Source: Bacillota bacterium (GTDB lineage: Bacteria; Bacillota; Clostridia; Peptostreptococcales; Anaerovoracaceae). Taken from it: a DNA stretch of 64,000 nucleotides. The DNA lies in the NCBI GenBank assembly GCA_905372035.1, contig CAJPNN010000002.1, forward strand, positions 1,497-65,496, in the 5' to 3' direction. Below the pieces are notes generated by a model that saw only the letters and a list, made by a program, of their open reading frames with translations, was not told the origin of the DNA and searched no databases. How positions within the stretch are numbered: position 1 is the stretch's first letter; every line of letters starts with the position of its first letter. Of this stretch, positions 494 to 64,000 are shown piece after piece. A program made the translations under genes and the position numbers.

Positions 494-4039
<3,546 letters not shown>

Positions 4040-47200: not shown

Positions 47201-50200
47201 CTGCCGTCTTTAAACTTCGTATGATCAGCCATATAATCTATGCCGCTTTGAGATGTATCTATCTTAAGGGCTTTAAGGCTTACATCTTCCGAAAGTATCG
47301 TAGCGACAAGTTTATATATTCCGTCATAATAGTTGATATTATCAGTTTCATCATGATCATCAGGTCCGTCAGGAATACCCGCATTGTGTATCCTTATATA
47401 GAACATCTCTCTGATCTTGCTGACAGGAACGTCCGTGAACTCGAAGTACCCTTTGTACTTATCTCCCGGCGTGGAGTTCTTAGATTTATTTCCTATAGGC
47501 GTTCCGTTCTTATCCTGAAGCGTAATATCATCCGTATTTACCTTACTCTTAACACGAATTACGGACTTATCTCCCTCAACCATAACCTGAACGCCGTAAA
47601 TTCCTTTTATACCCTTCAAGTTGTAGATTATATTTCCGTTAGGAAGAACTGTCTTTTCATATTCGTCGCTGTCAAGGAATCCCTTTGTAACAGCGTCATT
47701 TACCGCAAGATCCTTAGCCACGACGTGTTCCATGATGATCTTGTCAGGTCTGATCAGATCAGGATTTACCACCTGTATCTCAGCCTTTGCAACATAACCT
47801 GAAACTTTATCGGTTATAGTAAGAAGTGCGGTACCCTCTTTAACTCCGAGGAGCTTCTTATTGTCAATCTGTCCTGTATTAGGATCATTAAAGAATCTTG
47901 CTATATTACCTGTTCCGGCATTAGCACCGTGAACATCTTTCTCATCCGTTATCTCCCATTTATATTCTGTCGCATTCGGTTCTATATCTCTGAACATATT
48001 GAACCTTGATGCCGTAAATTCAACATTTTCGGTTCCACCTGCAGCAATTCTGAAGCTTTCAGGCATTATCTTCATCTGTTTTCCGCTGACTAAAACAGGA
48101 GAATATTTATATGAGTCTTCAACATTTGTGAATTCTCCGCTTTCTCCGCTCTCTCCATTACCGAGCTGACCTTTATCGTTTACACCGAACGAGTACAGAT
48201 AACCGTCATTCTTGAGTACATATGAAGCTGCTCCTCCGGCCGCAATGAATATCGCATTTCTGTTGAAATATGTAACCTTAATCGGTTTTGTCTGCGAATA
48301 TCCCGTCTCTCCGTTCGCTCTTCCGACTCCGAGACGTCCGTAATCTCCGTCACCCCAAGCATATACATCGCCTTCTTCAGTCAATGCAATATTATGCGTA
48401 GCTCCTACATCAAGATCCAGTACGCCTCCGAGATCTTTCACAAGTGTAGGTCCGATCACAGGATTTTTATCCCCTGTTCCGAGCTGTCCTCTTGCATTAT
48501 CTCCCCAAGCTATAACTCTTCCGTCATTAAGGAGTGCCAAACTGTGTGACAAACCGTTATATACTCTGCTTATCTGACCCTCGAACTGACCCATATTTAT
48601 TCTTATAGGTGATCTGTAGCTCTGGTTACTGTGTTCTTCGGAACTGATCTGCTTGTTGTTGTTAGCTCCCCAAGCCCATACAGTTCCGTCATATCTCAGA
48701 ACTATGTTGCAGTTTCCGCCTGCGCCGAAACTTATATCAATGATCTTGTTTATACTCTTCACTCTTACCGGAACTCTTTCGAAATCCTTCATAGATCCGG
48801 TTCCGAGCTGACCGTGACTGTTATCTCCGAATGTATAGATATCGCCTCCCCCGGTCAGAATCACGCTGTGATCTCTTCCGCCGAGAATCTTTCTTACATT
48901 TGAGATATTAGGAAGCATGGTCGGTGTATATATAGCATTTTCGAGACTGTCAAGACCTGTCTGACCTCTCTGGTTCGATCCCCATACATAGACTCTTCCG
49001 TCCGCATCAATTGCCAATGAATGGAATTCTCCCGCAGCTACCGAAACGATCTTCTTTCCTCTCAGTGCTATGATTTCCGTAGGTTCGCTCTTGTTTCCGA
49101 GAACATTATTTCCGAGACCCAGCTGACCGTAAGCATTTCCACCCCATGACCAAACCGTTCCGTCCGCTCTTATCGCAAGCACATGTGCATTACCCGCGGC
49201 AACCATAGGCATAGCCTTGAATTCTTCAGGGATTACCCTTACTATACATCTCGACTTCATTCCGCCTTTTTCAACGATAAGCTTTGCAACACCCGGATTT
49301 CTCGCAGTTATGTTTCCTAACGGATCCACTATCGCAACTTCCATGTTGCCTATTGTAAATTCCGCTTTCGTATTGTTTGAAACTACATCGCCGAATATGT
49401 TGAAGTCATTTCCGCTGAAAGTCTTAACGAGATATTGTTCTCCGACTCTTAACAGGATCTCCGATTCCTTTATAAGTTGTTTTCTCTCGCCTATTCTTAC
49501 AGGTACATCGCTTAGGGTTTCGTTGAATTCTAAGTCCGCTCCCTGAGAATAGTCACCGAATCCGTATACATTTCCGGCATTATCCACGGCAACACTGTAT
49601 CCCGTTCCCGCACTTACTGATGTCAATACGATGTTGTCATCTGTAAACTTGGTATTTCTGATAAATGCACTCTTATTTAATTTATCGCCTACTCCGAGCT
49701 GTCCGTAATTATTCGCTCCCGAAACATATGCTTCTCCGTCTCTGTTCATAGCGACGGTATAATCTTCACCTGCGGAAACCTCGGAAATATATGTGAGCGT
49801 ATCCACCTTGGAAGGTGTCGACGAACTTCCTTCTCTTCCGAGTTGTCCTTTGTCATTCTTTCCGAATGTAATGAGATCTTCTCTGAATGTGACAACCGCA
49901 CTGTGAGCTCCGCCCGCACTTATCGCTACCGCCGAGCTTACCTTGCTTACCTTTGCAGGTCTGTAGATATATGTAGAAGCACCTTCCACTCCAAGTCTTG
50001 CATTTTCATAATTTCCTGCCGCATAAACTTCACCCGTAGATCTTAAGAACAATGAGTGTTCATTTCCTGCGGATATGGCAGTTACACTGTTTATAGGTAC
50101 AAGTGCAGGTTCTTCAAGGTATACGAGGTTATCCGAAATTCCGAGCTGACCTCTGCTGTTATCTCCCCAGCTGTAAACGTTTCCTCTCTTATCAAGCGCA

Positions 50201-53200
50201 AGGTTGAACTCATTTCCTGCCGAAATTTCAATTATATCCTTAAGTCCCGCAATCTTTGTAAAGCTGTTTGTAACACGTCCTTTTACAGTTCCGGTAAACC
50301 ATACGTTACCTTCGCTGTCAAGTGCGAGGCTGTGCATTCCTCCTGCGGCAACCGCCTTGAATTTAACACCGGAAGGTGTAACATTAACCGGTTCGTCACA
50401 GTTATCGGTGTTGCCTGTGCCGAGCTGTCCGGAATTATTTATTCCCCATGCCCAAAGCGTGCCGTCATATTTAACTGCAACGGAATGTCCCGCTTTTGTA
50501 ACAGCATCAGGCCTGAATGTCGTTCCTGCCGGTACTTTTTCAGGAAGCACAACTACCTTGATGTATGCCTCTTTATGTGTATATGCAGCTTCAGTAACAT
50601 TGATGTAACTTACCCCTTCTTTAACTGCCGCCATCTGTCCGGTATTCATCTCAACAGTCGCTACCGACATATTGCTTGACTTATAGTTAAATTCCTGTGC
50701 CGCAGTCTCGTTATTAAGAAGGTTGAAGAGTCCGAAAGCACCTTTGAGCTTCTTCTGATCTCCCTTTCTCAGATAGATTGTACCGTAAAGCGGAGTATCC
50801 GTTTCATCAAGAATCGTAACTTCGCTTCCGCCTACAATCACAGGCTCATTTCTGTCTATTCTTGTGGAATCTCCGATCTGACCTTCTTCATTTGCACCGC
50901 TCATCCAAACCGTACCGTTACCTTCTACGGAAGCAATGTTTCTGTAGCCTGCAAATATGGAGATGTTGCTCTTCTCATTTCTGTTCTTCGTAGGAACATA
51001 CCTGCTGTCGGTATTTCCCGTTCCGAGCTGACCGTTGCTGTTTATACCCCAAGTATATACTTTTCCGTCGGAAAGTATCGCTGCCGAAGTATAATCGCCC
51101 GCCGCTATATCTTTTACATCCGAAATGGAATCTATCAGCTTAGGTGTCCAAACATCATGCCAGTCACCGTTACCGAGCTGTCCGTAATATCCTTTTCCGT
51201 ATGACCAAACACGTCCGTTTACATCAAGTGCAAGCAGATGATCTTTTCCTGCCGCGATCTTTATAATCGGAACACGTTGTTTATTTTGATCTTTAAAGCC
51301 CATAAGCTTCTTAGGTACGGCGTTGTTCGTCAATGTCCAAACATCTCCGCCCGCTGTAAGTGCATAGTTTCTGCTTATGTCTCTTATATTATCCGTATAA
51401 TTGAATCTTGAAGCCTTATTCCTGTTTCCGAACGCTTCTCCGAATACATAAACTTTGCCGTCTTCGGTGAGAAGCATTACACTGTTGTCAAATGCACTGA
51501 TTTTTGAAACTCTTATGTCCGCTCCGAATTCATGTCCGTCCGTTACGACTTTCTGAATTCCCGTAACTTTTCTGTCTTCAATTCCCGCACCTAACTGTCC
51601 GTATGTATTATCTCCGAACGAATATACTTTTCCGCTCTCGGAAACTGCATAAGTGGCATTCTTACCTGCCGCTATATATTTTATTATCTCTTTTATCGGC
51701 TGACTTCCGCCCGCACTTATAACGACTTCTTTTATTGCTCCTCCCGCCGCGTCATGTCCGAGCTGACCGTTACTGTTATTGCCCCAAGTCCAAAGTGTAC
51801 CGTCCGCCTTAAGTGCTACAGTATGAGTGTTTCCTACAGCAATCATAGGATATGCGGTCTTTCCTGTTACGACAACTGTCAGATATCCTTTCGCACTGCT
51901 TGTGGCACTCGTCACTTCAAGTATTGCAACTCCTTCTTTAAGAGCCCTTACTTTAGTATCCGCTCCGTTGGTCTTCAAAACATCCGAATTCTTGGAATTG
52001 ATTACGTATGCGCCTAATTTTTTACCGTCCTTTAAGAGGTTTATACTCTCCGACTCGGAAACCGTGATCATATCCTTGATATCCACGTCGTTATTTGCAT
52101 CTACAGGGAGCTTTATCGAATTAGGAACTGCCGATATACTGTTCTTTCCTGCAATCACAGGTACATAGGAATCATCCGTATCTTCATTACCGAGCTGCGA
52201 GTAATTGTTCCAACCGAAACTCCAAACATATCCGTCAACTTTGGAAGTTACGGAATGTCCGTAACCCGCCGCTATCTTCTCGATCTTATCCGCACCTACA
52301 TTAGGGTAAGTGGAAACCTGTGCAGGTTTCAATGTCTCCGAATAAACGTTTTCATTTCCTACCTGTCCCTTATCGTTCAGACCCCAAGCGTAAACCTTTC
52401 CGTCTTTTGAAAGTGCAAGACTGTATCTATATCCTGCCGATATTCTCTTGAGTGAAGGAAGCGCAGTATTGTCATTTGCCTCCGTTATCTTCCTTGCATT
52501 GTTTCTTCCTTTCTTCTCGCCGTCACCGAGCTGTCCGTAGTCACTGTTACCGAACGTCCAGAGTGCACCGTCTTCGTCGAGTGCGAGCGTATGGTTATTG
52601 CTTGAAGAAAGTTCGGTTATATTGGCAAGATCGCTCTTTCTTAAAACTACAGTTTCTTTTATGTCCGCAGGAACCACCCAAACAGTCTCATCCGACTTGA
52701 GTGCATATCCTCCTGAAATCGAAACCGTTCTGTTCAACAATGAAAGAAGTATCGGTGTACCTCCGAAGCTCGTTCCCGAACCTCCGATTTCATTTCCGAA
52801 CGCATATACGTTACCGTTGTTATCAACGGCATAACTGCTTGTTTCACCCGTTCCGAGTTCAGCAAACTCAATATCGTCAACACCGCTTATCATTGCAGGC
52901 TTTGACTGATCGCCCGATCTTCCGAGCTGTCCTTTGTCATTCAGTCCCCACGACCATACATGACCTTTGTTATCAAGTGCCAATACATGACTTCTTCCTG
53001 CTTTTATCTTAGTTATATATGTATCAGGATCATTTCCGAATACGATATTCATAGGGAATATTCTGTTCTCCGTCGATCCGTCTCCAAGCTGTCCGACATC
53101 ATTCTTACCCCAAGCATATACCGTTCCGTTAGCTCTCAAAATCACGGTAAAGCCTTCTCCCGACGCAACATCGGGACTTGCAAGATACTTAACCGTTCCC

Positions 53201-59200: not shown

Positions 59201-62200
59201 ACTCCCGTTCCCGTCGAAACGTCGAACAGATTGAACGAATCTTTAACAGGCTTATTAGGAGTTTCTTCTCCGCCTACGCTGAGCGAGTACAGATATTTAT
59301 CCATTGTGAGATAGGATTTTCCTACTCTCTCAGGTTCTCCTACGGTTTGAGTTCCTCCTATACCGAGTCTTCCCGCATAGTTGTTACCCGTTGCCCAAAG
59401 ACTTCCGTTTTCTTTTATGATAAACGTCGATGATATTCCGTCACCGAGTGAAACCGCCGTGCTGACAGCATCGTTAAACGGCGCTCCCTGCACATCGGAT
59501 TTACCCGCATGCATGTTCTTGACTTCATCGCTGTTTATCATTGTTTCGCCGAGACCCATAGGATATCTGTATCCCGCAGAACCCGTTACATAAACTTTAC
59601 CGTCGGTCTTGATCATCGTGGAATATCCGCGCGTCACGGTCCCCTGTATAGGGAAATTGCCTTCCGCATCTTTTGACAGAGCTTCTACTTTTGTAGGAAG
59701 GTTCAAAGTGGCGGCATTATTTCCGAGGCCTCCTTCTCCGTTCCATCCCCACATATATACTTCTCCGTCTATAGTAGTTACCATGCAGTTGTGCCATCCG
59801 AAGGTTGCAAAGATTACCTGCTTGTTGAGAACCGGAGCCACCGCTCTGTATCCGGAATCTACACCGTCACCTTTTGCGCCATAACCCGAATATCCCCAAA
59901 TTCTCAAGGATCCGTCATCAAGTACCGCTCCTGAATGGTGTGCAACGGTATCTGCTACCAGACTTCTTATCTTTCCTATAGTTCCGTTGTTCTTACTTAC
60001 ATTTACCGGTATTTTTATAATTGTATTTCCGCCTATGCTCGGATCGAGCGCCTGACAATAGTTCCTTCCGAAAGCATAGAGATTACCTTCTCTGTCCATA
60101 GCAAATGAAGTTGCGGCATAATCTCTATATCCGGCCGCTCCTATCTGAACTATGTTCTTAAGTCTCGAATCAGGGTTGTTTGAGCTGTAATCAACTCCTA
60201 CAACCTGCTTTGCAAGCGGTGCTACATTATTATCGCCCGATTTGTCATCACCTAAAGCTCCGATTCTTCCGTAACCCCAAGCGAACACTCTTCCGTATTT
60301 GTCGAGTGCCAAGCTGTGATCATATCCTGTCGCTATGCTTACAATATCCGTAAGCTTTATAGCATCCGTTCCTATAGTTCCGTTTCCGTTTTCATCACCT
60401 ATCTCAAGTCTCATAACCTGAACATGGAACTCGGAATTTCCGCCTACAGTTCCGTTTCCGAGCTGTCCTACGGAATTATCACCGAAGCTCCAAACGGTTC
60501 CGTCCGCCTTAAGCGCCAGTGTAAATGCATGCCCCGCTTTAACGACAGGGTTTGCAATAAAGTTGCTGTTCTTAGGTATTACATTTATTTTAATGTAGCC
60601 TACTCCGCCTTTTTCGGTATCTTTAACTACTATGTATGCAAGTCCTGTTCTGAGCAGACTGATTTTTCCGGTATTTTTATCCACCGTTGCGACTTTTTCA
60701 TTTAAGGAAGTGAATTCCAAGGTGTTAGGCGCATATCCCGAATCTCTCAAAACGTTAAACGCTTCATTCCCTAAAATTTTACTCTTATCTATATTAACCA
60801 CATCTCCGACCTGTAACGCCGAAACAACAGTATCATCTTTCAAGAGTACCGCTCCGTCATATATCCTTACAGTCTGAGATGTTCCGTCTCTGTCAAGTGT
60901 TGCAAACTTAATCTTAAGATGAGGGTTTCCGTTATTTAAAACTCTTACAGGCGTCAACCTCGAAGTTACGCTGCCGTCACCAAGCTGACCTGCGTCGTTA
61001 AGACCCCACGTAAATACATTACCGTTCATCTTTATAGCTGCAGCGTGATATCCCTGTCCCGACATGCCTAAAGACATAACAGCTCCGAGTTTTTCTTCTC
61101 CTGTTTCTCCTCCTGCAACTTCCATAGGAGTTCCCATAACGTCTCCGGTTTTACCTGTTCCCCATTCGCCGTTATGACCATAGCCCCATGAAAGTACTCT
61201 GTCCATCATCTTTTTCTCGGTAACTGCCGGAGTTCCCGGATCCGTTCCCGAGCCCGGTACCGCAGGGGTAACGATTACTTCGACCTCTCCGTACTGCCTT
61301 GCATATCCCGAGTCGGCTATTGTCGAAAGTTCGACAATCTTACTCAGCATCGTCTTTTCCGGAACAAGCGCGCTTCTGCTCTCAACCTTTCCGTTTGCAA
61401 GCATTCCGTTACCGTTCCAGCCCCATGCATATACGTCTCCGTCTTTATCGAGAGCCATTGCTCCGCTTTGCCAACCGCTCACCTGTACTATATTTTTAAG
61501 TGTCTTTTCTTCTCCTACACCCTTTACCATCATAGGCACATTGACATTAGATGCATGACCTATTCCCAAATGTCCCGAATCGTTATGTCCCCATCCGTAA
61601 AGTGTTCCCGTTTCCGTTATCGCATAACCTCTCGCAACGGCATATCCATGATTATTCAAGCCTGCCGCCGCAATGGAAACTATCTTATTTATGTGCTGCT
61701 TATGGGTATCTCCTCCTACAACCAAAACAGGCAGCTTGCTGTTTTCATTTGTTGCATTTCCGAGCTGACCATACGCATTTCCGCCCCAAGTGTATACTCT
61801 TCCGTCTTTTGCAAGAGCCATTGAGAATGTCGGACCTGCACGCACTTCCACTATATTTCTGAGAATGTCTTTGCCTGTAGGATCCTTAACCTGAACAGGT
61901 GACAAGATGACAGCTTCTCCGTCGTTTCCGACCTGCCCCAAAACGTTATCTCCCCATGACCAAATTGTTCCGTCATTTGAAAGTGCAAGTACATGTGCTC
62001 TTATACCGCTCCTGTTGGCTCCACCTGTCGAAATCATGATGATATTTCCAAGCGGTTTACCTCCGTTCATTACCTGAATCGGTGTAACGGAGTTGTCTTT
62101 CGTTCCGTTGCCGAGCTGACCTGTCGCATTATTGCCCCAAGTCCATACAGTTCCGTCCGCCTTTAACGCTACCGTATTATATCTTCCTACCGCAACCTGC

Positions 62201-64000
62201 GGAACTGCTACCGCACCTGCCGGTTTGATTCCGACTTTAATTATTTTAATAAAGTCCATACCGTCAGCAGAAACTATAATATTGGTTATTCCATATCTGC
62301 CGTTTGCATTAGGTGTAACCACACCGTTTTCATCGACCGTTGCAAGGCTCTTATCCGTGCACTCAAACTTAACCTTTGAAGTATCAAGGTTGTAGTCCGT
62401 CTTTTCCTTATAAAGATTAAATCCGTGTATAATCTCTGCGGTGATCTTTGATTTGTTTATCTCCAGTTTCTGATCCACCGCAATATATACATGTGAAGGA
62501 AGCGGATTGAACTTGTCATATTTTCCGCCCGTGATCGGTGTTCCGTCTTTTGTGATGTTGGCCCAGTCAGTTACAAACGTCTTGTCGGATATATGTCCAA
62601 CCTCCACAGGCTTCGTATTCGGAACAGTATTAGGTGACCCGTCACCAAGCTGACCATAGTTATTAAGTCCCCACATTACTACAGTTCCGTCAGGCCTTAC
62701 TCCCCCTGACACATGTGACCATGTAGCAGTATCAATTTGCACAAGTCCATCTAAACTATCCAATCCTTTTTTTATGGCAGTTGTCGCTGTTGCACCCGTT
62801 CCTGCCTGTCCATATGCACTATATCCGCCCCCATAAAACTTACCGTCTCTGCCTATCCCTGCTATCCATTGGGAGGCAGCTCCATTAGCATTTCCTAATG
62901 AAAACGCTTTCAATTCTGTCTGAAATTTAGATTTGATAGGTGTCGATATGTTCTGTTCACTATCTCCTGTAGGATGTACATTGTCATATCCCCAGATGTA
63001 TATGTTTCCTTTTTCTGTTAAAGCCCCAAATAAATTGTATCCAACAGGCTCAGAATCTGCAACACTTATATCTACTACTGTTTCTATATACTTCTTTGAT
63101 ACAGGTGAAATTTCATCTCCATCCTTTCCTTTTAGTACCTGTATAGGTGAAGATGATACACCTGTCAAGCCATCTCCTAAACTTCCATGTTGTAACTTTG
63201 AAATTCCAGATCCCCAAGTAAATACCGTACCATTCGATTTTAAGGCTATATCTGCACACATCGAAATTTCTACTTCTACTATATCTCCAAGCTGAGTTGT
63301 TCCTGCCTGTCCTCCCGCAACAGGTGTCGCTACATTTACATGTCCTTCTTTTCCTATCCCTAATCTGTAATAATCGTTATTTCCCCATGTCCATAGATTT
63401 CCATCTTTATCTATAGCAAATACTGCTCCCGGTCCTGAAAATACAGCAACAGCATCATTAAATGTGGCACCGCCTGCTTTTACTACACTATTTGTAGGCA
63501 CAAGCTTTTCTACATTTGTGCCGTCTCCTATTCTTCCATCTCCATTATATCCCCAGCACTTTACCGTTCCGTCGGAAAGCAGTGCTACACTCCCTATATC
63601 ATTTGCCGCTACATCTATTATGCCTTCAAGTCCTTCTACCTTAACAGGCGCTGTTGAGTTTACTTTTGTTCCGTTTCCTAACTGTCCATAGTTATTCAGT
63701 CCCCATGTCCATACTGTTCCGTCTGATTTTAATGCAACTGTATGATTTGATCCTATAGCTATCTTCGGCATCGCTACAGTTCCCGCCGGCTTTATCTTTA
63801 CCACTATCATTGTCTGCCAGCCGGATTCACTATCCTTTATTATTATCTTTGTACTTCCATATCTTTTATTATTATTTGGCTTTACTACTCCATCTCCATT
63901 AACTGTTGCTATAGATTCATCCATGGATTTAAACTCAAGACTTCCTACATTAACAGGGTCTGATATGGAAATCAAATTAAATCCACTACTCTTTTTTATC
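26212..64000 (-). CDS. giant modular extracellular protein, 5'-truncated by the window (more than 12,590 codons): (Big_2 + RCC1 propeller) x at least 11, about 60 cadherin-like beta-sandwich units, CarboxypepD_reg-like domain, dockerin-like C-terminus
   Basis: Stop-free frame 26215-63999. The ORF-track M at 63975 is a TTG inside a Big_2 domain. The 8 codons upstream (IKKSSGFN) are also open and match the FN(L/V/I)F/Y element that precedes Big_2 in other modules. Recurrent, divergent domain signatures run through the whole frame. Stop TAA at 26212-26214. Confidence 0.92.
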   Translation of the reverse strand, partial: IKKSSGFNLISISDPVNVGSLEFKSMDESIATVNGDGVVKPNNNKRYGSTKIIIKDSESGWQTMIVVKIKPAGTVAMPKIAIGSNHTVALKSDGTVWTWGLNNYGQLGNGTKVNSTAPVKVEGLEGIIDVAANDIGSVALLSDGTVKCWGYNGDGRIGDGTNVEKLVPTNSVVKAGGATFNDAVAVFSGPGAVFAIDKDGNLWTWGNNDYYRLGIGKEGHVNVATPVAGGQAGTTQLGDIVEVEISMCADIALKSNGTVFTWGSGISKLQHGSLGDGLTGVSSSPIQVLKGKDGDEISPVSKKYIETVVDISVADSEPVGYNLFGALTEKGNIYIWGYDNVHPTGDSEQNISTPIKSKFQTELKAFSLGNANGAASQWIAGIGRDGKFYGGGYSAYGQAGTGATATTAIKKGLDSLDGLVQIDTATWSHVSGGVRPDGTVVMWGLNNYGQLGDGSPNTVPNTKPVEVGHISDKTFVTDWANITKDGTPITGGKYDKFNPLPSHVYIAVDQKLEINKSKITAEIIHGFNLYKEKTDYNLDTSKVKFECTDKSLATVDENGVVTPNANGRYGITNIIVSADGMDFIKIIKVGIKPAGAVAVPQVAVGRYNTVALKADGTVWTWGNNATGQLGNGTKDNSVTPIQVMNGGKPLGNIIMISTGGANRSGIRAHVLALSNDGTIWSWGDNVLGQVGNDGEAVILSPVQVKDPTGKDILRNIVEVRAGPTFSMALAKDGRVYTWGGNAYGQLGNATNENSKLPVLVVGGDTHKQHINKIVSIAAAGLNNHGYAVARGYAITETGTLYGWGHNDSGHLGIGHASNVNVPMMVKGVGEEKTLKNIVQVSGWQSGAMALDKDGDVYAWGWNGNGMLANGKVESRSALVPEKTMLSKIVELSTIADSGYARQYGEVEVIVTPAVPGSGTDPGTPAVTEKKMMDRVLSWGYGHNGEWGTGKTGDVMGTPMEVAGGETGEEKLGAVMSLGMSGQGYHAAAIKMNGNVFTWGLNDAGQLGDGSVTSRLTPVRVLNNGNPHLKIKFATLDRDGTSQTVRIYDGAVLLKDDTVVSALQVGDVVNIDKSKILGNEAFNVLRDSGYAPNTLEFTSLNEKVATVDKNTGKISLLRTGLAYIVVKDTEKGGVGYIKINVIPKNSNFIANPVVKAGHAFTLALKADGTVWSFGDNSVGQLGNGTVGGNSEFHVQVMRLEIGDENGNGTIGTDAIKLTDIVSIATGYDHSLALDKYGRVFAWGYGRIGALGDDKSGDNNVAPLAKQVVGVDYSSNNPDSRLKNIVQIGAAGYRDYAATSFAMDREGNLYAFGRNYCQALDPSIGGNTIIKIPVNVSKNNGTIGKIRSLVADTVAHHSGAVLDDGSLRIWGYSGYGAKGDGVDSGYRAVAPVLNKQVIFATFGWHNCMVTTIDGEVYMWGWNGEGGLGNNAATLNLPTKVEALSKDAEGNFPIQGTVTRGYSTMIKTDGKVYVTGSAGYRYPMGLGETMINSDEVKNMHAGKSDVQGAPFNDAVSTAVSLGDGISSTFIIKENGSLWATGNNYAGRLGIGGTQTVGEPERVGKSYLTMDKYLYSLSVGGEETPNKPVKDSFNLFDVSTGTGVEAEFNWQTWNGKEDIVKVDPRSGKITAVGVGTTYVIVNIVGDSVSTAAIKVEVAPSGAKAFPQVALGNKFSAALRADGTVWIWGNNDYGQLGNGSYNGNTTYPEKVSGLSNIIKIAAAHEFMLALDKSGNVWSWGRNHKGQLGTDKTDNSNVPVKVLKGEQESGTEFLSNIVAIQAGGSDENSSFAVALASDGKIYAFGDNTYKQLAKSDETMYKVPKLLPITDGRDIAVGKGNTLYVLKNSGAVAVMGSNRNYEYGIGNTGEAYPTTVPLTNSAMGIGAADKNGMAITYMLENNEKPNEDITGKIYGFGNNANYMLSAKNGVLARPETMTGRDNIVVMGGSDTVYTIDENGKLLMSGEGTSGQLGNGKFANSTSAAVTFEALAKDSGKPLGKVIGAAVSKGGKHVIAIAEDGTLWAYGENRNIQLGNSEIVDKTNTAVKVGGEMSVGAAKHEILLRKDAKYSAADLASVNPTFNVIKEMQQPNVSISYESRNAAVATVKNDGEISATGVGQTFIKISIKPDGGETKELFIKVLVVPDDKTVTKKFITYPSVDVGHEFTVALKANGEVYSWGLNDYGQLGLGYTGGIETAPQKVMDGVVSLSAGHNYVVAATADGKVYTWGCDNYGQLGHGNPKKNLDTPEEVKFFTDNNIKIVKVSAGGYEGYGFTLALSDKNEVYGFGINNGRQISETGAGEFTLPVKIPVADIIAISANTIRTSYMLSASGTVYAMGIADYGEYGEAKREAIQAVNIGDGLKAVAIASGHGSAFAITSDNQVIGWGRSVEGQLGRQAYNVAPTAMSLKDVVMLDGGMSTLALISNDVFDDETKASFGNIYSSGNNAYGQLGTGDNAHKYEFGKVKAEEEDKPFNKAIYVATSDMASNSAAISREGNVYVWGLGANGQIGNGSFESYSKPTTAGVRRMIVSGIPDNRLLVKVGDEGIKLHATVTSGFNVFGDDIPLGDVAIRAASTNPDVVSISNDSLHKLTYHKPGEAKIVLYDKESGLYGICQIKVLPADLNIENPVFPKTVAGGSFGMALKADGTVWTWGNNEYGQLGINDESKKEVLSPVQVVMSNGQPLKDVKDIAAGDYFALALLKDGTVYAWGYNDGNGALGQGTGARYNQHAPVQVKGVGGTGFLGDEKTGKIVSISADYYSAVAVTEKGTAYAWGGNDYYKLGTLSGGVMYTPTKVAGVNNAFEAYPNRYRMSILNKDATVLGAGYNNYGELSTGEQSTKSRVQLAQKGKNQGPIKGVSHVAVGEHHTVLNVYEFDKELPPGEDPSKQFKNRVLSSGYNAEGAIGNGKYDYYNLYAVPVRTPDNKADLTGIASVAATVRGSFALAHDGTIWSWGQNDQGQLGNTVVGGNYSLAAKVLKDNITGEPIKNIMYVTSASTGRYALAINELGGVFSWGANNLGQLGDGTVGGNQTYPTVVGSVPLKISKKLIRVKPNESDKVTVENDGKPFFVFGEIAQSSSISWRVLNSRIASINAGNNGEVTVTGLKNGETSVIAKDNVTGKTISCKIIVSDGFTNPQVVGGKDFTVALKADGTVWTWGLNRAGQLGIANSTPQAVLPQKVTKYESKYQGEIFEFKNIIKIAAGTDFALALDADGNVYSWGLNSYGQLGYSNYYYGSRNMPIKITAISSIVDIKAGDSFALALDADGRVYSWGRNTHGQLGLNTIDGSQHPTPELVKGKGGSGVVRGAVEIAASYRSGALVLGDGSVWSFGDNSKGQLGDGSTSSYSATIVGVKNIKNANKLVGGAMNMAAVLDDGNAVIWGDNSSSQVNNVNAAGMDVCNTPYLIEDATHAAMKNIDNIAIGGSDAGDSQIIVTDMDGNIYTWGSALNGKLGDGVLANRATPVKISVPKDTGAKVGGIGAGNAHSLAILENGDVYAWGANTSGQLGDETMVQNIYPVKVGGDYIDLDKYHITIKVGDNDLKDITGRYNLFFNVYKDVDSTASISARSLDESVVRVENGKLVPVAAGKTKVVVSAKGKNAICEVTVLGADAGTVKYLASPDVASGEGFTVILRANGTVYAWGKNDVGQLGDGSTENRIFPMNIVFGNDPDTYITKIKAGRSHVLALDNKGHVWSWGLNDKGQLGRSGDQSKPAMISGVDDIEFAELGTGETSSYAVDNNGNVYAFGNEIGGSGTSFGGTPILLSLLNRTVSISGGYALKSDETVWVVPADIKETVVLRKSDLANITELSSSNNHTLALDEDGALWTFGNSDYGQLGDGEKKGRNNARKITEANDNTALPSLKRISAGYRYSLALSKDGKVYAWGLNDKGQVGNENVYSETLKPAQVSTYPNVGADKIEKIAAGYGHSVTSKVDGYVWSFGWNNYSQLGNEDTDDSYVPVIAGKNSISAVPNSIKLPVDANNDVDIKDMITVSESESINLLKDGKKLGAYVINSKNSDVLKTNGADTKVRALKEGVAILEVTSATSSAKGYLTVVVTGKTAYPMIAVGNTHTVALKADGTLWTWGNNSNGQLGHDAAGGAIKEVVISAGGSQPIKEIIKYIAAGKNATYAVSESGKVYSFGDNTYGQLGAGIEDRKVTGIQKVVTDGHEFGADIRVSKISAFDNSVMLLTEDGKVYVFGEAFGNRNKASRFNYTDNIRDISRNYALTAGGDVWTLTNNAVPKKLMGFKDQNKQRVPIIKIAAGKDHLLALDVNGRVWSYGKGYYGQLGNGDWHDVWTPKLIDSISDVKDIAAGDYTSAAILSDGKVYTWGINSNGQLGTGNTDSRYVPTKNRNEKSNISIFAGYRNIASVEGNGTVWMSGANEEGQIGDSTRIDRNEPVIVGGSEVTILDETDTPLYGTIYLRKGDQKKLKGAFGLFNLLNNETAAQEFNYKSSNMSVATVEMNTGQMAAVKEGVSYINVTEAAYTHKEAYIKVVVLPEKVPAGTTFRPDAVTKAGHSVAVKYDGTLWAWGINNSGQLGTGNTDNCDEPVNVTPSGVKFKAVAAGGMHSLALDSEGNVWFTGTVKGRVTNSFTKIAGLKDIIEISAGNEFNLALDKRGNVYSWGDNSRGQLGISDNLVYLEEPALVPINSVTAISAGNEHSLFLRSTGEVYAAGNYENARLGVEGASTYIYRPAKVSKVSSAVAISAGGAHSAVVTFREDLITFGKNDKGQLGREGSSSTPSKVDTLTYISEVSAGEDYTVAMNRDGEAYVSGANNYGQLGVGDKLNKSAFIRNTKFTDDNIVLTSVSAGTGYSVAVDNAGNVYGFGDYSQGADLEFNETLSDVPVRIGERKQLIKESEILLRVGEQYLVKTFSGNDFNIFGDVVSNNTKAEFTIGNMEVAIVDPLGNITARNPGVAKLIVEKGGMKSRCIVRVIPEEFKAMPMVAAGNAHVLAIRADGTVWSWGGNAYGQLGLGNNVLGNKSEPTEIIALRGKKIVSVAAGEFHSLAIDADGRVYVWGSNQRGQTGLDSLENAIYTPTMLPNISNVRKILGGRDHSVILTGGGDIYTFGDNSHGQLGTGSMKDFERVPVRVKSINKIIDISFGAGGNCNIVLRYDGTVWAWGANNNKQISSEEHSNQSYRSPIRINMGQFEGQISRVYNGLSHSLALLNDGRVIAWGDNARGQLGTGDKNPVIGPTLVKDLGGVLDLDVGATHNIALTEEGDVYAWGDGDYGRLGVGRANGETGYSQTKPIKVTYFNRNAIFIAAGGAASYVLKNDGYLYSFGVNDKGQLGNGESGESGEFTNVEDSYKYSPVLVSGKQMKIMPESFRIAAGGTENVEFTASRFNMFRDIEPNATEYKWEITDEKDVHGANAGTGNIARFFNDPNTGQIDNKKLLGVKEGTALLTITDKVSGYVAKAEIQVVNPDLIRPDKIIMEHVVAKDLAVNDAVTKGFLDSDEYEKTVLPNGNIIYNLKGIKGIYGVQVMVEGDKSVIRVKSKVNTDDITLQDKNGTPIGNKSKNSTPGDKYKGYFEFTDVPVSKIREMFYIRIHNAGIPDGPDDHDETDNINYYDGIYKLVATILSEDVSLKALKIDTSQSGIDYMADHTKFKDGSITSIKNAIQIGNTNQYFTVVDDATQNLKIYVYGEGGFASTISVNNKKVNADHDEAHKHPKNFDVQTVTLNENDKMVTVPINITADNNKSMSYLLTIYKKKAATAIKEITATSKGVANGKTYRAVMTDDLHYDVYLPEDVKSVDITTIGELSEAQVQYKAAAPNRDLDYSKVVNGVYPDFVLADKSGTDTAVVQLKAGGNEGLQYTLRIHRLSKAEDPMVYVNANYVKKEKMPGVQGIYRYKVDKTADSARVMVTTATYGSYIKIGDTAPSLNASIQNIRVNFGPDGTQDIDIHVIPDGESANDGNRYILRLYNEDSDNRLGEVKADEIIKATGAAGEEFKAVYDYEKDAYIVKVKGKVEKIRLNANPMARGALIALDKNEDTAKNAAGAPSATVEEELLQNEITYFATVTPKVHDSVTGVYAKATYKIIVIRQSSNVDLDVKFGEHKLNLDADESTYDFLLPRSADGSDNTVRTLTAETKDKFAAVTISDSKTFEIANGAGNKAEMKDVKANEPEATVKYIHVRAQDGTTKTFTVKIKKLSKDKTIINDGVIVQTTSGKQIAKYDANTSTYRVKVPYDKEGAWIKVIPNNKDAYIRVGDEGDYKKPEEDTLVTGEAPSVVYKNFTLVDPATGAKETVTKISVKSPDGIDPVKEYNLIIEAASSDTSIYTIREISNVKYAGKPVKAPEGVSEYDYYLGVDQEDINNGATVQIEVVATSPSATVTINDGIANGTVPADFVNENTDPSETNRALKTIKLMNDQPVVRIKVVSEEGVATKIYKLRIVPKSNDNTIDPNGYVKLVRINDMDRPVGYNTAKGAYVVSVAEGTSKLPIRIKANSPFAKVAVDRFANPLGSDGALYSDNNEIMLPGYDISGTDLNKGLEIPFYVKAENGAIRTYKIIVQTAARDTAVTKVELIIDGVAREAVVNKLNPLEYNIVVGRDVSKADIRVTPNSYEVHEILIGGAYDSIDNITGARTRNNYPMELGNEFTVPISVTASDKLTKEDGYKLIIKKVDLNMDLASVKVDETSLTKGAKDTYTYIANTNVLNSKANITLISVKPESTVKLERMIPAKGKSPVEYSYEEIGKAVKGGGVWDDVSLDTKSDINRFRVTVTAEDGYTSKTYYLVIRTKSENTEIDYIKVGQYYAKPTNDNSKWEVKIPNTTKFAAFTIKTYDELASILKLNGSGYEQGIYSDVITDMDLQTANKVLTFEIKSQSGNTKRTITLTIIGDETAPAIKKITVNGDKAKDPTVSETNYIYDTVLPNASELLVGAEGTLINYYVEIDGGDRKLSKNEKKVYMPVSESEKEIGVKLYKEATDSNSAVAAGLILKRLAQDYGIILTVDGKAPTAKNDGSYEAYVDAKASHAGIKAIASNNNYIVTIDGYSDKDGSPASVNNKANTGQAAELNTYLYRALESKETTVNITVKKSDDDKTPAKYRLVLRMKSNNTAVKEVIANIGTSYENKDTTESLETHNGKPYGIYNVFIPVDKADPNKLIYTELLSVRPEDKTSEVSIDGGDFSSVDADGVYTKRVVLTNKTFDANNDGTPDTFIVPMKVKSQSGDIKEYKIYVTVSDLDLGLTSVKVNSTVIKPDSKGNYVAYVDNGAVSADVLLQATENALPEIRSLDGNIVAPNGGSNLLVVRGFDISKLDPNNPDGLKFNIRLKAKDSAYERIVPLIFKAKSGSTKITVEVNGRKAVWNTATNTFEGYLSYEEKQANIQAVAEDDFAKVGIETNPPVDVKVTSKLINVDGDSAVVKIYVTAQNGTPATVNGKGWYTLNLTRRSGDNGILKIFETTTNVPAMEKQDPVTGDKVYSFYFGDDNKDFGLTVVPASKATLRVGYYDKAGAWIGSDWTSQHDSTFAGNINADENKGKYSVEVRAENGDIKAYSLNMLRKKGDVSLKSIVTNRGEVSHFNVKMDKDIQYDSYVPEKNVKIEIRPNDENAKILSVRRVVAPNDDAEYTDVLKAAEWDNDTAPDGTRNFILKGGVKLGIVEYYRIEIESHSGVIGKRYLLLRGMSDDISVHRVKVNNVLGTDVINEGKEYIFKVDNSLNKLPVEFVANSRAYITYVNGVKVTVPAGDWNNNGEDYKLSIGEQTAIGFRVDAEMYVDAERTPNAFRDYSVKIFKNSNNTALTGVTVNGGTAKARSNNPTIYEISIPSKVDANDLLSSNPAKIRINTQNGFADIVMLENEQPTSEKAKGELNVTRELGDPESNPVNIFRFRVISSSGNAQQDYTLYVYRDLEKIGIKSLHVDGKKIEEKNGIFAAQVEIGKPVDISIEPVGALSKITLWGNGISENAPKIGTGLSIFENLPINAVGDTEYRFKVAASDGSAESEVKRIIISVSQGADTGIQSVEFAGKKAKISDWDKSTYIVNVPPETLTGLLKIKANNAQSKILFEGINSIDGVLTASCHCAGNVTELIFNVTARDGKTKKDYKLLIVKGISTIKNVKVNGNDALKQGDKYYYQVKPNASAADVTLTASSTAAKVKIAGNAEKIHEDTVSVKLNSVGETVVPLVVSTYPFTDDMKVNASLIITKQDNRLNLSSVLFKPESQNSAREVEKDSKGDYYTLMPAADTKGQLTVVANSSDVNLKLYKVGNPDAIADGAESIDVALSNLTDPVNKYKIVASRGTDTAVYDLTMAKRNSDAEIVKVIGQKGLPDETVANKVSSTDPDKNTKYVLYVRDDLKDLALYIKSSNEKAKISLEGVSDSQVGEFNADVSLPLDQKEIKKVITVVATDNTKKNYDLVISRENRVARLDEVAVNDTVIEYKNGAYTAYLDESAYPTMENATAKVVIKAPAGTVKLYKDNNELVSKSGISNVWSDDALQIDALKIDEYRIVVTSGNGQSSASYKLIIRTPDYQTGLDYVKVDAGAGETELKKDASNTYNMIISNSSDHIKISAGALNKNAILKINRVDNDTYKQTINSLAISTMIKDIYIPIDVTDPDLKVTRYTVKLTRKNLDDSIKTLKVDDSENLVNTKKVETINGKEHDVYTYILKDAVSDFSTPVITNIYAETANAFAKITGGMDTAPDPVEQDLNVWSVNKFRLADKEVTVFEIKTKSEDSKEIKVSYLRVYKKTSNTELESIKAYYKENGKETSQAAQVKDGEYHVWVPSTASLVDIEAISKSLMAGVKVGSHVTYKEHQDKLTDVPMAANEFVIDISVRATDGTIAAHKLHVHKADVSLKNLIIYNALQGNQDAEYRDGAYHVDILPQDNVSVTANTTLRDMYVRIGVLKKPASTDSSYAEYLRKASNYANDDPDIVWLEWVKATNTYQVLPLNTEDASTTMVKVQVGVPNDLANPHEPTLGDDGVIGTVATYNLFIKQKSNNNKLIPVVDDVAIKESIPKLEADGHVYNNFYFGVPSSHANTVRFKILKDALGVDEPVVSLMNNVPDQSGTVYINNDFAHDTYVELAINAPAQVAEDTEDSVFELTARSKTGQVAYYRVHIYRQSQNTDIDYGESTVNKEYRKKTVVDEHITDIFETPETALDQVDLDGKPLAGKYALVYLKTVAPKAKIVFKGKTYVGATDDPNDRVKGILVPIKEGEKHLDIPYTVISEDESSEGRKVSDNILHIDVSSVNNNIEFIEIRGVNTTRAVQSGEDVDGFTGEKITVYKGFVSSEDYRLSVEKNIKTYVTAQAQTHTEKTVVRLADENGELEPGIVNPSPQLAYRSSYSYDTKDANSENPVTVSMSVTSETGVRKLYRLDIYRTVDDNRKVKNVWVAPAGKLDSASPASFDPAENMYVAEIGNDIRTIEIKVKADHEYAGVDINGKNEYEVGEKTLLINNLKPGQSYDFHFKVRSQDEMATGKSEGKDYVVRVKRISENRKILKVELKNSNGEVVETIRKVDHVNKRIDIDVPYASQIVPVNIIADDPGAVLSMSLPHGDFTAQSKLEVNLPFDKDEFANGPKAYSVQVKSTPNDTTPATYNIVLHRKTSELKVKEVKLNGRLAKVNPNNHYEFSIDIGSGELKGNLSATTLAEGEFIQLVSGSRPFVKNTDTYEDLSFDDILVGNEREFSINVGSKDSNSVTGDPDQIKETKLKIRRLKPEEIRSDLQLVFNVAETKNGTYKRASFKNTTKEVIDGEERTVDNYQKFVNPVVKYAYIKTQTNFGDSKIDISQDGAVLGSGNGEADATAFMSSDNIVLPVKVTAKDGATMNYKLFIEKASNNIALKIVEAKAQVAGTMMLTPVTATPVKMNEYVAEMPMGSEAATFRVVTEDPDTIIQLYDEDMKTLTGESVKGELRFGQKIGMLTDKSEYVLKIKVISKTGGAEQDYYLRAVSIPDGTEIKDMFVKGVDDPVERFKSAAVTGLTTYFASVPNKDAAHPAEKATVKIVPKNPEAVISIEGVANPDGKGEYITEVALTSSLVTEVNVVVQAPSGAKSQYKLYLSKYTYDYELIVRVNNEITERAGNTYIRRNALPFNVNSANVEVTVADREKGYQLSINGGALQKITVDRPIATAKVPLSGGVLTNFPVKVYDAAGQFIKEYTVSVKKDQEDNNLGVIYVDGHKAVKYGTADGRVKYEAYSYGSPKHNGTDKGTANVEIYAVNKNSMIEMVRVKEAGGADNEWRGIDPSTGRLKATVGGLERKKDDNPMPPETNRFNITITAGSSSYYELYIHYVPADVFLDGLQVTKKGSSVPAPFKNGVYKKDILEYEVELNEDVNEFDISAWALETKKAVDAYFTSLGLDAANYPTKIKIGDAEPLGNGVEVLQKDSGEHVSAHVKVSNDYTRIPVYLMVPNFVKTYYVVIHKTSSDATLRELSVKDHNIEPEFKPEVKGYTLDVESYNKEAVIHARANHDHVGAGTRVTLLGFRNGVDKYQIGSELVEINEKVSLAYGSNNFEIRVTSENGTVETYKLTIYRKPIDVDLKDVLVNGNNAAYVGNNTFRAYVVPGSKAEIKVRGNDPRAVATLNNGVISNPGDYAVMEMDTKNIPGNVNEVAVKVAVTDGSVVVEKNYKLEVVEADGDILSVYMDAGDGTFDPSSPVNSALKYANPISATWNSAENRFEIGIPYLKLSPKIRITTMKEGKQVKVGVGSYKNPDTGTEKRFTGGILIDASKNESLVKIVVKDKASGIEKPYDLLIKRLSNEAELSDLDVGSETKIKPDFDPKNKVYEMTVEKDSVKFNKIAAKHPKATIKIRDNTSVNSFGNTTEFTLKNLKPGINIMEIEVTSEDKTVTNIYKVRVNFKLPAKASLLKDLRVYTGEKEKDRRYHHLVPMFDKNIQTYYMPISSKLNEKTDPVFVEATPIDQQYQLFYKKIVNGEQADSGNGSLVLIDKQLHANDEVRVVFSVQYKGTSSGVPLAEYTVIFGKDKESNLNPDTDWLTSISLEKTELTRDFSEGIKDGNYFATVENNVTKDKLTAVVGDVGASVVTKLYKLENDRKTWTLQNNINSGIPTEITFDVGDNVYLIEALVNADAGEKPTIKKYYSLTINRKAEEKTDFVVGDPLLKSITTNVASISPLFDSNITSYNLSVTNKVEELALTIEAKDDKAVISVRSEAWDYDEEGLGFIKTNGIRLVSGNNRIVITCEVQGAKKVYVLNINKAVEPYTAELVDLKHDKRGTLAPIFNSDISNYYITYPADAQDIWFTPIMRAPDSGHVEVYVDGTKVMDVNSGDVFNYKNVKFGESVVKFRVVVDKNGTKVTRDYVVTVFRNKTDDPVAEGINIEAFNKAGTRYELTPPFKENVNSYYLNVPNSEDSVDIKVTLPNSVGSTVLINKANAGAGNKYTVPLNTVGDHEIIVEVKDNNGNNKWYTIIVNRSDVEKPGTVKLDDLKVKQAKYKLTPLFASDIKYYEVKVDADTNFINLIPYSGSNITINNMPVLSGAQSQNLELNYGETFIDVVLKGTAAMGTQNTKVHYIVKVIRPTEDHNAKLVNLSVDKGTMAPVFRTDQSSYYVTVPYGVKTIGVLPTALEAKNVVKINGQVFSGTDYMQVDISGTTNKNLRIEVFEDSNATVASSTYTLSVSRRDLSGKNVDLKGFELSNVELTTVFNTREINYYAYVPESMSTVELKVSAAADGAEISGAGTIDFTSRQTKTTIVTVTNGNSVQRYSLTLMDKPKTKLINQIAVENATYDFATTENAGNAIIARSAESAKITVGQAGDGKDYFINGKKIKSGEAVTVKINTDRDRFDIRAVSGDKVSEEVYVLYLDKDKDKPFEPYISKIMLNNDGSTITSNDLIPNFDKKKFEYAATNGGEKVYMFAEPDTENSFIELYNEENGVYSVVEDLGSMIEQNIDKVKGYSVFKFRITKFSANGYENINEYNVKVYNTDSPIANRIWVQDAVMEPEFKETLRDYAVKISNNTTEFTVNSEIGYSDGYVEMSIDGGDFVRGNTRTFTGLNLNRKNFEVVVRIHDGKGKHGDYRLHVERTDEPILQIELQDLKMTDETAEGDGLYELKPKFTEGKGRYEAVISYTDRSVKITATAKNADDRISAVLPDGREIPLISGAESPDLVLPADFLADDDARAVIRLKAVDNTGKIGNYEIVITREARKFGNARLESLVPTYTDGEEIGNFIFNPESKNHKIIVKRGTKEINLKAVAENPADNVVVNYNGTDIAGNSNNKIVKVPVSEDDTRNFVFLTVGGGGTTPSTYMVEIVYANTAYLADISVTDDDPDDDYKKLIPGFDPLKRDYKVKVGALETNIEFTILGNDDADLSMKKDGESAHKLLSVREMKKAFDLDLATKEFKFIFEINKPASGSDPGGKGQYVVTVIRDTAASEAVVQTYIKGKVRLYGPDASSVIRLFDSSGNQVVAGKDGIAMDYEVGADGAFEIQPRQEGTYSMEIERKGYLKLKIVNIEIGRTFAKAMYDFGMLDLMPGNVVDAGDSKDVIDETDLEAFRKIMDGQNTVTVTYDEDTGAIIKTTSIGGIERTSVVLESVVATDIKSDTDNVTAENALNVLDEKTDDVSKVDKLEASVEVEGDKVAISVTKVVVGEGMNRAPAMVTATVTVNRADCDFNQDGVVDFKDLTYLVTHMGKKMFVIDNRDVNDVNRKKPVQYV
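26311..26346 (-). other. dockerin / EF-hand-like Ca-binding segment 2 of the giant protein
   Basis: DFNQDGVVDFKD followed by LTYLVTHMGKK matches the D-x-N-x-D-G-x-(I/V)-x-x-x-D + helix pattern of dockerin repeats. It starts 44 aa from the C-terminus. Confidence 0.5.
26677..26760 (-). other. dockerin / EF-hand-like Ca-binding segment 1 of the giant protein
   Basis: PGNVVDAGDSKDVIDETDLEAFRKIMDG. An Asp-rich loop followed by an amphipathic helix, as in a dockerin repeat, but with a longer loop. Confidence 0.35.
26809..27033 (-). other. CarboxypepD_reg-like / Cna-B-like small beta-sandwich near the C-terminus of the giant protein
   Basis: IKGKVRLYGPDASSVIRLFDSSGNQVVAGKDGIAMDYEVGADGAFEIQPRQEGTYSMEIERKGYLKLKIVNIEIG fits the I.G.V...a.V.l.d.sG......t...G.F.i.....G.Y.l.i...Gy pattern. 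Confidence 0.5.
27075..47760 (-). repeat. array of about 60 divergent cadherin-like beta-sandwich units (PF12733-like), 100-125 aa each
   Basis: I counted about 61 unit-closing strands of the form Y-x-[LIV]-x-[LIVF]-x-[RK] by eye (YTLRIHR, YKLRIVPK, YKLTIYRK, YSLTINRK, YVVTVIRD and others). C-terminal units carry the canonical L-x-x-L-x-V...L-x-P-x-F...Y-x-x-x-V opening, for example LRELSVKDHNIEPEFKPEVKGYTLDV. Confidence 0.75.
47760..64000 (-). repeat. tandem array of at least 11 modules, each one Big_2 Ig-like domain followed by an RCC1-type multi-blade beta-propeller
   Basis: Each module has (S/T)xxxxVATVDxxGxV...G Big_2 text, then a first blade such as HTVALKADGTVWTWGxNxxGQLGxG, then further blades with GxNxxGQLG. 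First blades lie at about 63770, 62210, 60560, 59020, 57560, 56140, 54630, 53180, 51855, 50515 and 49215. The period is about 1300-1650 nt. A terminal Big_2 lies at about 47760-48090. Confidence 0.85.

Follow-up and report, generated by a model that had tools for sequence, protein, structure and literature searches.

Genes for giant proteins of the RCC1 type have been described in gut Clostridia of the family Oscillospiraceae, whose products, known from gut metagenomes, consist mainly of RCC1 repeats, are without transmembrane anchors and are predicted to be extracellular; other Clostridia giants, of 10,000-30,000 aa, carry dockerin repeats, and adhesion to, and predation on, other cells have been argued for (West-Roberts et al., bioRxiv 10.1101/2023.11.21.568195). 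Big_2, an immunoglobulin (Ig)-like domain, is in turn listed among the stalk domains of fibrillar adhesins (Monzon et al., 2021, PMC8286594), and our literature search found no paper on arrays of RCC1 plus Big_2 domains as such. A giant repeat protein is one of the largest investments that a bacterial genome can make, and those of the RCC1 type are without an established function. In this work, we analyzed a stretch of 64,000 nucleotides (hereafter, the window) of a Bacillota bacterium assembly (GCA_905372035.1, contig CAJPNN010000002.1, positions 1,497 to 65,496), which holds a minus-strand open reading frame (ORF) of 12,587 aa, read from position 63975 downwards and containing all the Ig-like domains and RCC1-type propellers described here. 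We regard it as probable that its product is a giant secreted extracellular protein, in which 11 or more Ig-plus-propeller units and a Cadherin-like stalk work as a fibrillar-adhesin-like fibre; the anatomical part of this reading is near-certain, and the adhesin function that we infer stands at about even chances.

A hidden Markov model (HMM) of the propeller blade, seeded with the GxNxxGQLG sites of the protein itself and refined in three iterations, recognized 77 blades, arranged in exactly 11 clusters of seven (aa 74-468, 596-1021, 1147-1560, 1658-2041, 2146-2510, 2619-3027, 3122-3510, 3605-3949, 4047-4389, 4493-4813 and 4927-5293), with spacers of 94-127 aa between them. A preliminary description of this DNA had proposed at least 11 modules of Big_2 plus RCC1 with a period of 430-550 aa and with one limit at position 47760; this per-module count confirms the modules, the period is right (units of 424-553 aa), and the limit is about right, the array ending at nt 48097 and a twelfth Ig-like spacer reaching 47716. 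Outside the 11 clusters, no blade was found at E below 0.01 in the 12,587 aa, with one sub-threshold match at aa 9707-9745 (E 0.13). The Pfam models WD40_RLD (PF25390; 2027 bits in 21 stretches, cutoff 150), RCC1 (PF00415; 1313 bits in 40 stretches, cutoff 21.7) and RCC1_2 (PF13540; 1127 bits in 39 stretches, cutoff 22) likewise place these tandem repeats of about 50 aa far above the curated cutoffs.

The complete motif GxNxxGQLG is present in exactly 31 copies, and the shorter GQLG in 36. In a colinear whole-unit alignment, conservation among the 11 units is almost solely structural, being confined to Gly residues and the GxNxxGQLG motif, and the units are mutually 28-31% identical as protein. 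Blade 1 is by far the best conserved: its copies score 45 bits on average when compared in pairs, and those of the other blade positions 7-26 bits; the earlier statement that this first blade (VALKADGTVWTWG) is almost invariant was nevertheless too strong, since VALK.DGTVW recurs exactly in only three units. The Pro-rich insert noticed in the second module (TPAVPGSGTDPGTPAV) is present in unit 2, at aa 903-918 (nt 61222-61269). When blades were compared one by one, 22 of the 77 best matches paired a blade with the blade at the same position of another unit, against about 10 expected, which is only a mild enrichment, and blade 1 drew most of the matches; the colinear alignment of whole units is the better evidence for what would be a duplication of whole propellers.

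Structure prediction was carried out with AlphaFold2 on two units, namely unit 7, which is average, and unit 10, which is the most compact and has the weakest HMM support, using the 11 paralogues as the alignment. Unit 7 was modelled with a mean predicted local distance difference test score (pLDDT) of 81.5 and a predicted template modelling score (pTM) of 0.86, and unit 10 with 87.7 and 0.90, respectively. In Foldseek searches of the PDB, complete seven-bladed RCC1-like propellers came top for both models, with UVR8 followed by the RCC1-like domains (RLDs) of HERC2 and HERC1, RPGR and RCC1. The match to UVR8 had a target-normalised TM-score (TMt) of 0.81-0.88 and a root-mean-square deviation (rmsd) of 1.9-2.9 Å over 350-390 columns (unit 7, TMt 0.87-0.88; unit 10, TMt 0.81-0.84, rmsd about 2 Å). 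In these 2 of the 11 units, the full propellers of UVR8, HERC2 and RCC1 were matched at TMt 0.78-0.88, and the supposition that the repeats close into seven-bladed propellers is borne out by both models.

The Ig-like nature of the spacers, also part of the preliminary description, rests on several comparisons. Searched singly against Big_2 (PF02368), 7 of the 12 spacers matched at E below 1 (best 8.7e-07) and three favoured the Ig-like HL_N-beta model, whose best Pfam stretch (aa 3551-3580) lies in the spacer of unit 8; the whole protein scored 69.6 bits against Big_2 (cutoff 22.8) with two significant stretches, the best of them in the spacer of unit 10. All 12 spacers align with each other, and a profile built from them matched, in the PDB, the Big_2-type Ig domains of NUP210 (6.5e-16), a phage short tail fibre, teneurin-like proteins, the S-layer protein Sap and intimin. 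Individual Big_2 matches are weak, and it is the 12-spacer profile that justifies calling the spacers Ig-like domains of the Big_2 type; the roughly 90 residues that precede the propeller are all-beta in both AlphaFold2 models. According to these models and profiles, each unit is predicted to consist of an Ig domain of the Big_2 type and, after it, a closed RCC1-like propeller of seven blades (Table 1).

Table 1. Position of the giant ORF and its parts in the 64,000-nucleotide window, in the order in which the protein is read.
Feature	Coordinates	Strand	Composition and support
Single giant ORF	26212..63975	-	ORF list; a 99.5%-identical ENA contig calls a 14,725-aa product
Unit 1	62572..63975	-	Ig 63757-63975 (cut by window edge), seven-blade propeller 62572-63756; spacer Big_2 E 0.048
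Unit 2	60913..62571	-	Ig 62191-62571, seven-blade propeller 60913-62190; Pro-rich insert
Unit 3	59296..60912	-	Ig 60538-60912, seven-blade propeller 59296-60537; one weak blade (E 0.021)
Unit 4	57853..59295	-	Ig 59005-59295, seven-blade propeller 57853-59004; spacer orthologous to spacers of P0154, P0424 and P0453
Unit 5	56446..57852	-	Ig 57541-57852, seven-blade propeller 56446-57540; blade HMM
Unit 6	54895..56445	-	Ig 56122-56445, seven-blade propeller 54895-56121; blade HMM
Unit 7	53446..54894	-	Ig 54613-54894, seven-blade propeller 53446-54612; blade HMM, AlphaFold2, Foldseek
Unit 8	52129..53445	-	Ig 53164-53445, seven-blade propeller 52129-53163; blades 3-4 only partial HMM matches
Unit 9	50809..52128	-	Ig 51838-52128, seven-blade propeller 50809-51837; blades 3-4 partial HMM matches
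Unit 10	49537..50808	-	Ig 50500-50808, most compact propeller 49537-50499; two partial blade matches; AlphaFold2, Foldseek
Unit 11	48097..49536	-	Ig 49198-49536, seven-blade propeller 48097-49197; blade HMM
Twelfth Big_2-like Ig domain, closing the array	47716..48096	-	Aligns with the other 11 spacers; no propeller after it
About 57 tandem Cadherin-like (PF12733-type) beta-sandwich domains, ~100 aa each	27055..47196 (aa 5594-12307)	-	Pfam and iterated HMM
C-terminal module	26215..27054	-	CarboxypepD_reg-like domain, degenerate Ca-binding loop (26704-26745), insert, canonical loop (26308-26346)

The 11-unit array takes up aa 1-5293, i.e., the N-terminal ~40% of the protein as read in the window, and the Cadherin-like array, which the preliminary description had overlooked as part of the same protein, fills most of the rest. 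PF12733 matched in all ten pieces of ~770 aa into which the region downstream of the propellers was divided, and it was the sole Pfam family there. Self-BLAST of aa 5290-12587 returned weak repeats only; the 57 diverged domains, whose linkers are mostly of 4-20 aa, could be told apart only with an HMM that was derived from the protein and iterated. In the C-terminal 330 aa, a CarboxypepD_reg-like domain matched below threshold (E 0.036), and 119 residues (aa 12425-12543) lie between the degenerate calcium loop and the canonical one, DxNxDGxVxxxDL (DFNQDGVVDFKDL). This end of the protein looks like a split, degenerate dockerin, to judge from its loops; a type I dockerin (PF00404) has two adjacent Ca-binding F-hand repeats of ~22 residues, an arrangement that is absent here. 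The equivalent region of the relative P0152 matches Dockerin_1 (29.6 bits, cutoff 22.9) together with CarboxypepD_reg and Peptidase_M23. The C-terminal module has neither a transmembrane helix or hydrophobic tail nor an M23 peptidase, and NCBIfam holds no family for an Ig-plus-propeller unit, for the segment after the array or for the C-terminus.

The history of the units was examined with orthologue fragments from related uncultured species, which are ended by contig limits and are colinear, unit for unit, with the window protein. With a 2,400-aa query, these were 42-43% (P0453 and P0454), 38% (P0422) and 36% (P0424) identical, with nothing above 43%; further fragments were 32% (P0189) and 31% (P0154) identical. 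Aligned in register, P0453 scored 1191 bits (42% identity), P0422 1045 bits (38%) and P0424 785 bits (36%), whereas alignments shifted by one or more units scored 352 bits or less at 25-29% identity; for P0189, a score of 1585 bits in register fell to at most 470 when shifted. Positional orthologues of a unit are thus 36-42% identical and paralogues 25-31%. Since the in-register scores are 2-3 times as high as the shifted ones, the units diverged earlier than these species did, and each has kept its own identity since; the units are old, diverged duplicates with positional orthology across species. As a separate observation, P0422 and P0424 carry a Cadherin-like beta-sandwich segment (around aa 2210-2440 of P0424) with a cluster of five blades on one side and one lone blade on the other. 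The segment seems to break up the equivalent of the third propeller, which in unit 3 of the window protein consists of seven contiguous blades.

The reading frame is open at the window edge, where the final 25 nt contain no in-frame stop. An ENA contig (ERZ26867812 NODE_60, 131,678 bp), the longest of six near-identical assemblies, shares 20.9 kb with the window at 99.5% identity. Its version of the gene, expected at about 33.56-77.74 kb of the contig, has a predicted product of 14,725 aa, which, set against the 12,587 aa in the window, leaves ~2,138 aa upstream of the edge; the whole gene thus measures ~44 kb and its start codon lies ~44 kb from argC. The content of this upstream part could go either way. 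The N-terminus of P0424 consists of a signal peptide and ~770 aa of T/S/E-rich low complexity; a first Ig domain comes next, which aligns to residue 16 of the window ORF, and the orthologue of unit 1 is its first propeller, a layout in which no propeller would precede the window edge; the more distant P0154 has seven further blade clusters ahead of the equivalent point, and would predict more. The earlier claim that the array continues past the edge is right in that the ORF runs on and the first Ig domain is cut, and goes too far in that further propellers upstream are unproven; 'at least 11' is the safe count. An exact 67-mer from the window end had no match in JGI metagenome contigs, and a protein-pattern scan there returned distant relatives only. 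On the strength of the signal peptide of P0424 and of the N-termini of the relatives with the same layout, of which P0152, P0157, P0161, P0163 and P0167, among others, start with basic residues and then a hydrophobic helix, the window protein is predicted to be secreted by the Sec route and extracellular. The P0424 gene (L167 9168-18212 and upstream) is divergent from, and adjoins, L7Ae-rpsL-rpsG-fusA-tuf, and the same neighbourhood may follow just beyond the window edge plus ~6.4 kb.

Regarding the frequency of such arrays, a profile of the Ig-plus-propeller unit was searched against 1.84 billion cluster representatives, and 301,618 proteins matched at E values of 0.001 or less; the best 150 are large multi-propeller proteins of 1,464-7,235 aa. 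Of these 150, 35 or more blades are present in 115, 56 or more in 32 and 85-88 in two, counts made with an HMM that is biased to the window protein and therefore undercounts others. The notion that RCC1 propellers occur once or a few times per protein is therefore wrong for bacteria, and the 77 blades of the window protein lie near the top of the range of its relatives, and inside it. Arrangements vary: P0155 has 85 contiguous blades and some relatives have back-to-back propellers without a spacer, while regular beads are found in P0160 (ten clusters of 6-7 blades) and in P0174 and P0175 (eight clusters of seven). The search for homologous proteins returned no match longer than ~1.75 times the query (910 aa where the query had 521 aa, and 4,172 aa where it had 2,400 aa), a bound that makes giant relatives invisible to short queries, so that a lack of long matches is no evidence of rarity. 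The source species is not among the GTDB representative genomes, in which the best match reached 31% identity along the whole query and the best segment of any locus did not exceed 43%.

The same Big_2-RCC1 unit, which the preliminary description had suggested looking for in related genomes, was matched end to end in many relatives, and a subset of these (P0152 with 7,235 aa, P0157 with 6,737 aa, P0161, P0163, P0167, P0171, P0172, P0193, P0245 and others) shares the domain order of the window protein: an N-terminal basic-hydrophobic signal or anchor, (Big_2-RCC1)n, a Cadherin-like array, CarboxypepD_reg, Dockerin_1 and, usually, Peptidase_M23. In these layout relatives, the Big_2-plus-propeller unit is matched at profile positions 4-465, the Cadherin-like arrays are similar, and the blade clusters number as many as 14, with 6-11 of these containing at least five blades. 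They differ from the window protein in being half as long, at 24-28% identity, and most carry an M23 peptidase and a canonical dockerin, whereas the window protein has no peptidase and its dockerin-like module is split.

The two-part layout suggests a binding end and an anchoring end. In the reading that we prefer, the protein would form a fibre several hundred nanometres long, resembling a fibrillar adhesin, with the Cadherin-like array as its stalk. An Ig-like domain is usually ~4 nm long, and at ~4 nm per domain the Cadherin-like array alone would span roughly 0.2 µm. The dockerin-like end would bind a partner, probably a cohesin-type protein on the surface of the producer, and, since the C-terminal module is a bona fide dockerin in relatives, cohesin-type attachment is the simplest model of anchoring. 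At the far end, the chain of propellers would offer many weak binding sites in series, and this multivalency would give avidity for a repetitive target, for which a glycan or protein layer on another cell, mucus or a particle are candidates. Should the propellers bind, RCC1 propellers would join the bacterial adhesive domains, and a widespread family, with more than 300,000 database proteins matching the unit, would be explained.

Several points weigh against this fibre-like adhesin. Its weak step appears to be anchoring, as the module is degenerate here: Dockerin_1 was not reported at E values up to 1 in the C-terminus, where only EF-hand_1 appeared, below its cutoff (E 0.021), and neither an LPXTG motif nor an SLH domain was found in the protein as read, nor was a cohesin partner seen. 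Fibrillar adhesins are recognized by an adhesive domain and an anchor, and the 12,587 aa contain no Pfam match to an adhesive domain and, as a possible anchor, the sub-threshold dockerin-like module; the survey of fibrillar adhesins never mentions RCC1, which is not among the recognised adhesive domains (PMC8286594). The ~2,138 aa upstream could hold an enzyme or toxin domain. Further, the structural evidence consists of predictions from an alignment of 11 paralogues, and the selection described below was measured on the Cadherin-like and C-terminal part only.

Four other explanations were weighed. A structural matrix, sheath or S-layer-associated scaffold, serving as biofilm matrix or envelope spacer with propellers that recognize no specific ligand, would suit a protein made entirely of repetitive beta-rich domains, whose propeller conservation is confined to fold-determining residues and whose spacer profile also matches domains of the S-layer protein Sap; moreover, the most conserved blade is the one beside the Ig domain, which suggests a structural interface and not a ligand site. 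However, the identity of each unit has been kept across species to a greater degree than generic filler needs, and a single-copy 44-kb gene is a costly route to bulk matrix, and we hold this account to be unlikely. The same positional orthology bears on a more ambitious idea, in which each of the 11 or more propellers would be a distinct recognition module with its own ligand, the protein being a multi-specific, and not merely multivalent, adhesin: a single-chain panel of lectin-like or protein-binding propellers on a stalk of about a quarter of a micrometre, held by a non-cellulosomal cohesin-dockerin pair in an amino-acid-fermenting bacterium of the Anaerovoracaceae. That orthologues are closer than paralogues is consistent with different specificities, but old duplication alone gives the same pattern, and on present sequence comparisons such a panel seems quite improbable. 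Equally doubtful, in our view, is a contact-dependent device that attacks cell walls, of the sort proposed for other giant bacterial proteins, with propellers and beta-sandwiches holding a target cell for enzymatic degradation of its wall. Many layout relatives do end in an apparently intact M23 peptidase (HxxxD ... HLHFE; Pfam E 3.2e-25 in P0152) directly after the dockerin, and predation as well as adhesion is argued in the preprint on giant RCC1 genes (bioRxiv 10.1101/2023.11.21.568195); the window protein, however, has no M23 domain and stops ~30 aa past its last calcium-binding loop, with argC following 325 nt on from the stop codon, and no other enzymatic domain matched Pfam or NCBIfam in the 12,587 aa read, which leaves the upstream N-terminus as the only possible site of an enzyme.

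The remaining explanation, an artefact of mis-assembled repeats or a decaying pseudogene with an accidental ORF, has hardly any probability left and can be regarded as effectively refuted. Repeat arrays are prone to assembly error, the source is metagenomic, and no isolate is found among the closest matches. Nevertheless, an uninterrupted ORF of 37.8 kb cannot arise by chance, and 47760-64000 contains no repeated DNA beyond short stretches, at most 85 bp long and 76-81% identical; with units that have diverged to this degree in DNA, and to 28-31% identity in protein, assemblers cannot confuse them. Six independent assemblies (ENA, Logan and JGI), found via the adjacent ArgC, match the window at 99.4-99.5% identity; in them the ORF is intact, without indels over the C-terminal 5.2-9.7 kb that they share with it, and the orthologues are colinear in other species. 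Samples that contain the species include ERZ26867812, SRR27355674, ERR1422698, DRR582263 and JGI 3300013753. In three comparisons of 9.7 kb, covering the Cadherin-like and C-terminal part, synonymous and nonsynonymous changes numbered 24:5, 35:7 and 42:18; about three quarters of sites are nonsynonymous and yet synonymous changes are in excess, which indicates strong purifying selection. With an assembly made unambiguous by the divergence of its units, several independent metagenomes and purifying selection, the window protein is suited to follow-up.

On the opposite strand of the giant gene, six plus-strand ORFs (46573-47802, 50056-50679, 52960-53577, 57757-58494, 27214-27882 and 28132-28788, the first four of 205-409 aa) had no Pfam match and are most likely antisense shadows of the giant ORF, arising from a strongly skewed coding strand. 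The G+C content within the same ORF is 0.44-0.465 over the RCC1 part (48-62 kb) and 0.40-0.42 over the Cadherin-like part (26-48 kb), a step near 48000 that probably reflects the Gly-rich blades.

The flanking genes (window 494-25886) encode PFOR, rnfCDGEAB, a NusG_II-domain protein, heptaprenyl diphosphate synthase component I, argF, a DUF1836 protein, an RlmL-type THUMP rRNA methyltransferase, mreB, queF/queT, carBA and argDBJC, a set that is a typical core-metabolism chromosomal region of an amino-acid-fermenting anaerobe. No terminator-like site was found between the giant gene and argC, and Rfam returned nothing in the window at the gathering threshold. An origin in a phage, a plasmid, another mobile element or a defence island was considered and ruled out, all neighbours being core metabolic or housekeeping genes. 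The CarB protein shares 81% identity with its counterpart in Sinanaerobacter chloroacetimidivorans, 79% with the one in Anaerovorax odorimutans, 74-77% with proteins of metagenome-assembled genomes labelled Anaerovoracaceae and 71-72% with those of Oscillospiraceae; by this similarity, the host is probably an uncultured anaerobic, gut-type Clostridia bacterium near the Anaerovoracaceae. In Logan ERR1422698 (L083 11241-14435), carB is split into two predicted genes (456 and 597 aa) in place of one of 1,064 aa, owing to either a strain frameshift or an assembly error.

Among known systems, eukaryotic RCC1, UVR8, the RLDs of HERC1 and HERC2, and RPGR have the same seven-bladed fold (target-normalised TM-score 0.72-0.88) and the same blade motif, at ~20-28% identity; they differ in having one to three propellers and in being intracellular, where they act on GTPases, chromatin or ubiquitin ligase partners, and nothing suggests nucleotide-exchange activity in the window protein. 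Fibrillar adhesins are, like the window protein, very long and secreted; Ig-like or beta-sandwich domains in tandem (here 57 Cadherin-like and 12 Big_2-like domains) make up their stalk, and the end opposite to it is a separate region that is not stalk, and what sets the window protein apart is that its putative binding region is an array of at least 11 large domains. The closest resemblance in size and host class is to the RCC1 giants of Oscillospiraceae, which are also longer than 10,000 aa, encoded by Clostridia, rich in RCC1 seven-blade propellers, predicted to be extracellular and of metagenomic origin; the window protein has each of these traits, with 12,587 aa in the window (14,725 aa in full), the affiliation given by CarB and the signal peptide of an orthologue. 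Thus, it belongs to a class that has been described before, the giant RCC1-repeat proteins of gut Clostridia, and that is common in sequence databases, and the finding alone reveals no new kind of system. Within this class, the Oscillospiraceae proteins are said to repeat one domain along their whole length, whereas the window protein changes after aa 5293 from RCC1 propellers to ~57 Cadherin-like domains and a dockerin-like end, and its host is nearer to Anaerovoracaceae than to Oscillospiraceae; what is new is therefore this two-part layout of RCC1 and Cadherin-like arrays, in an unusually large protein of a different host family.

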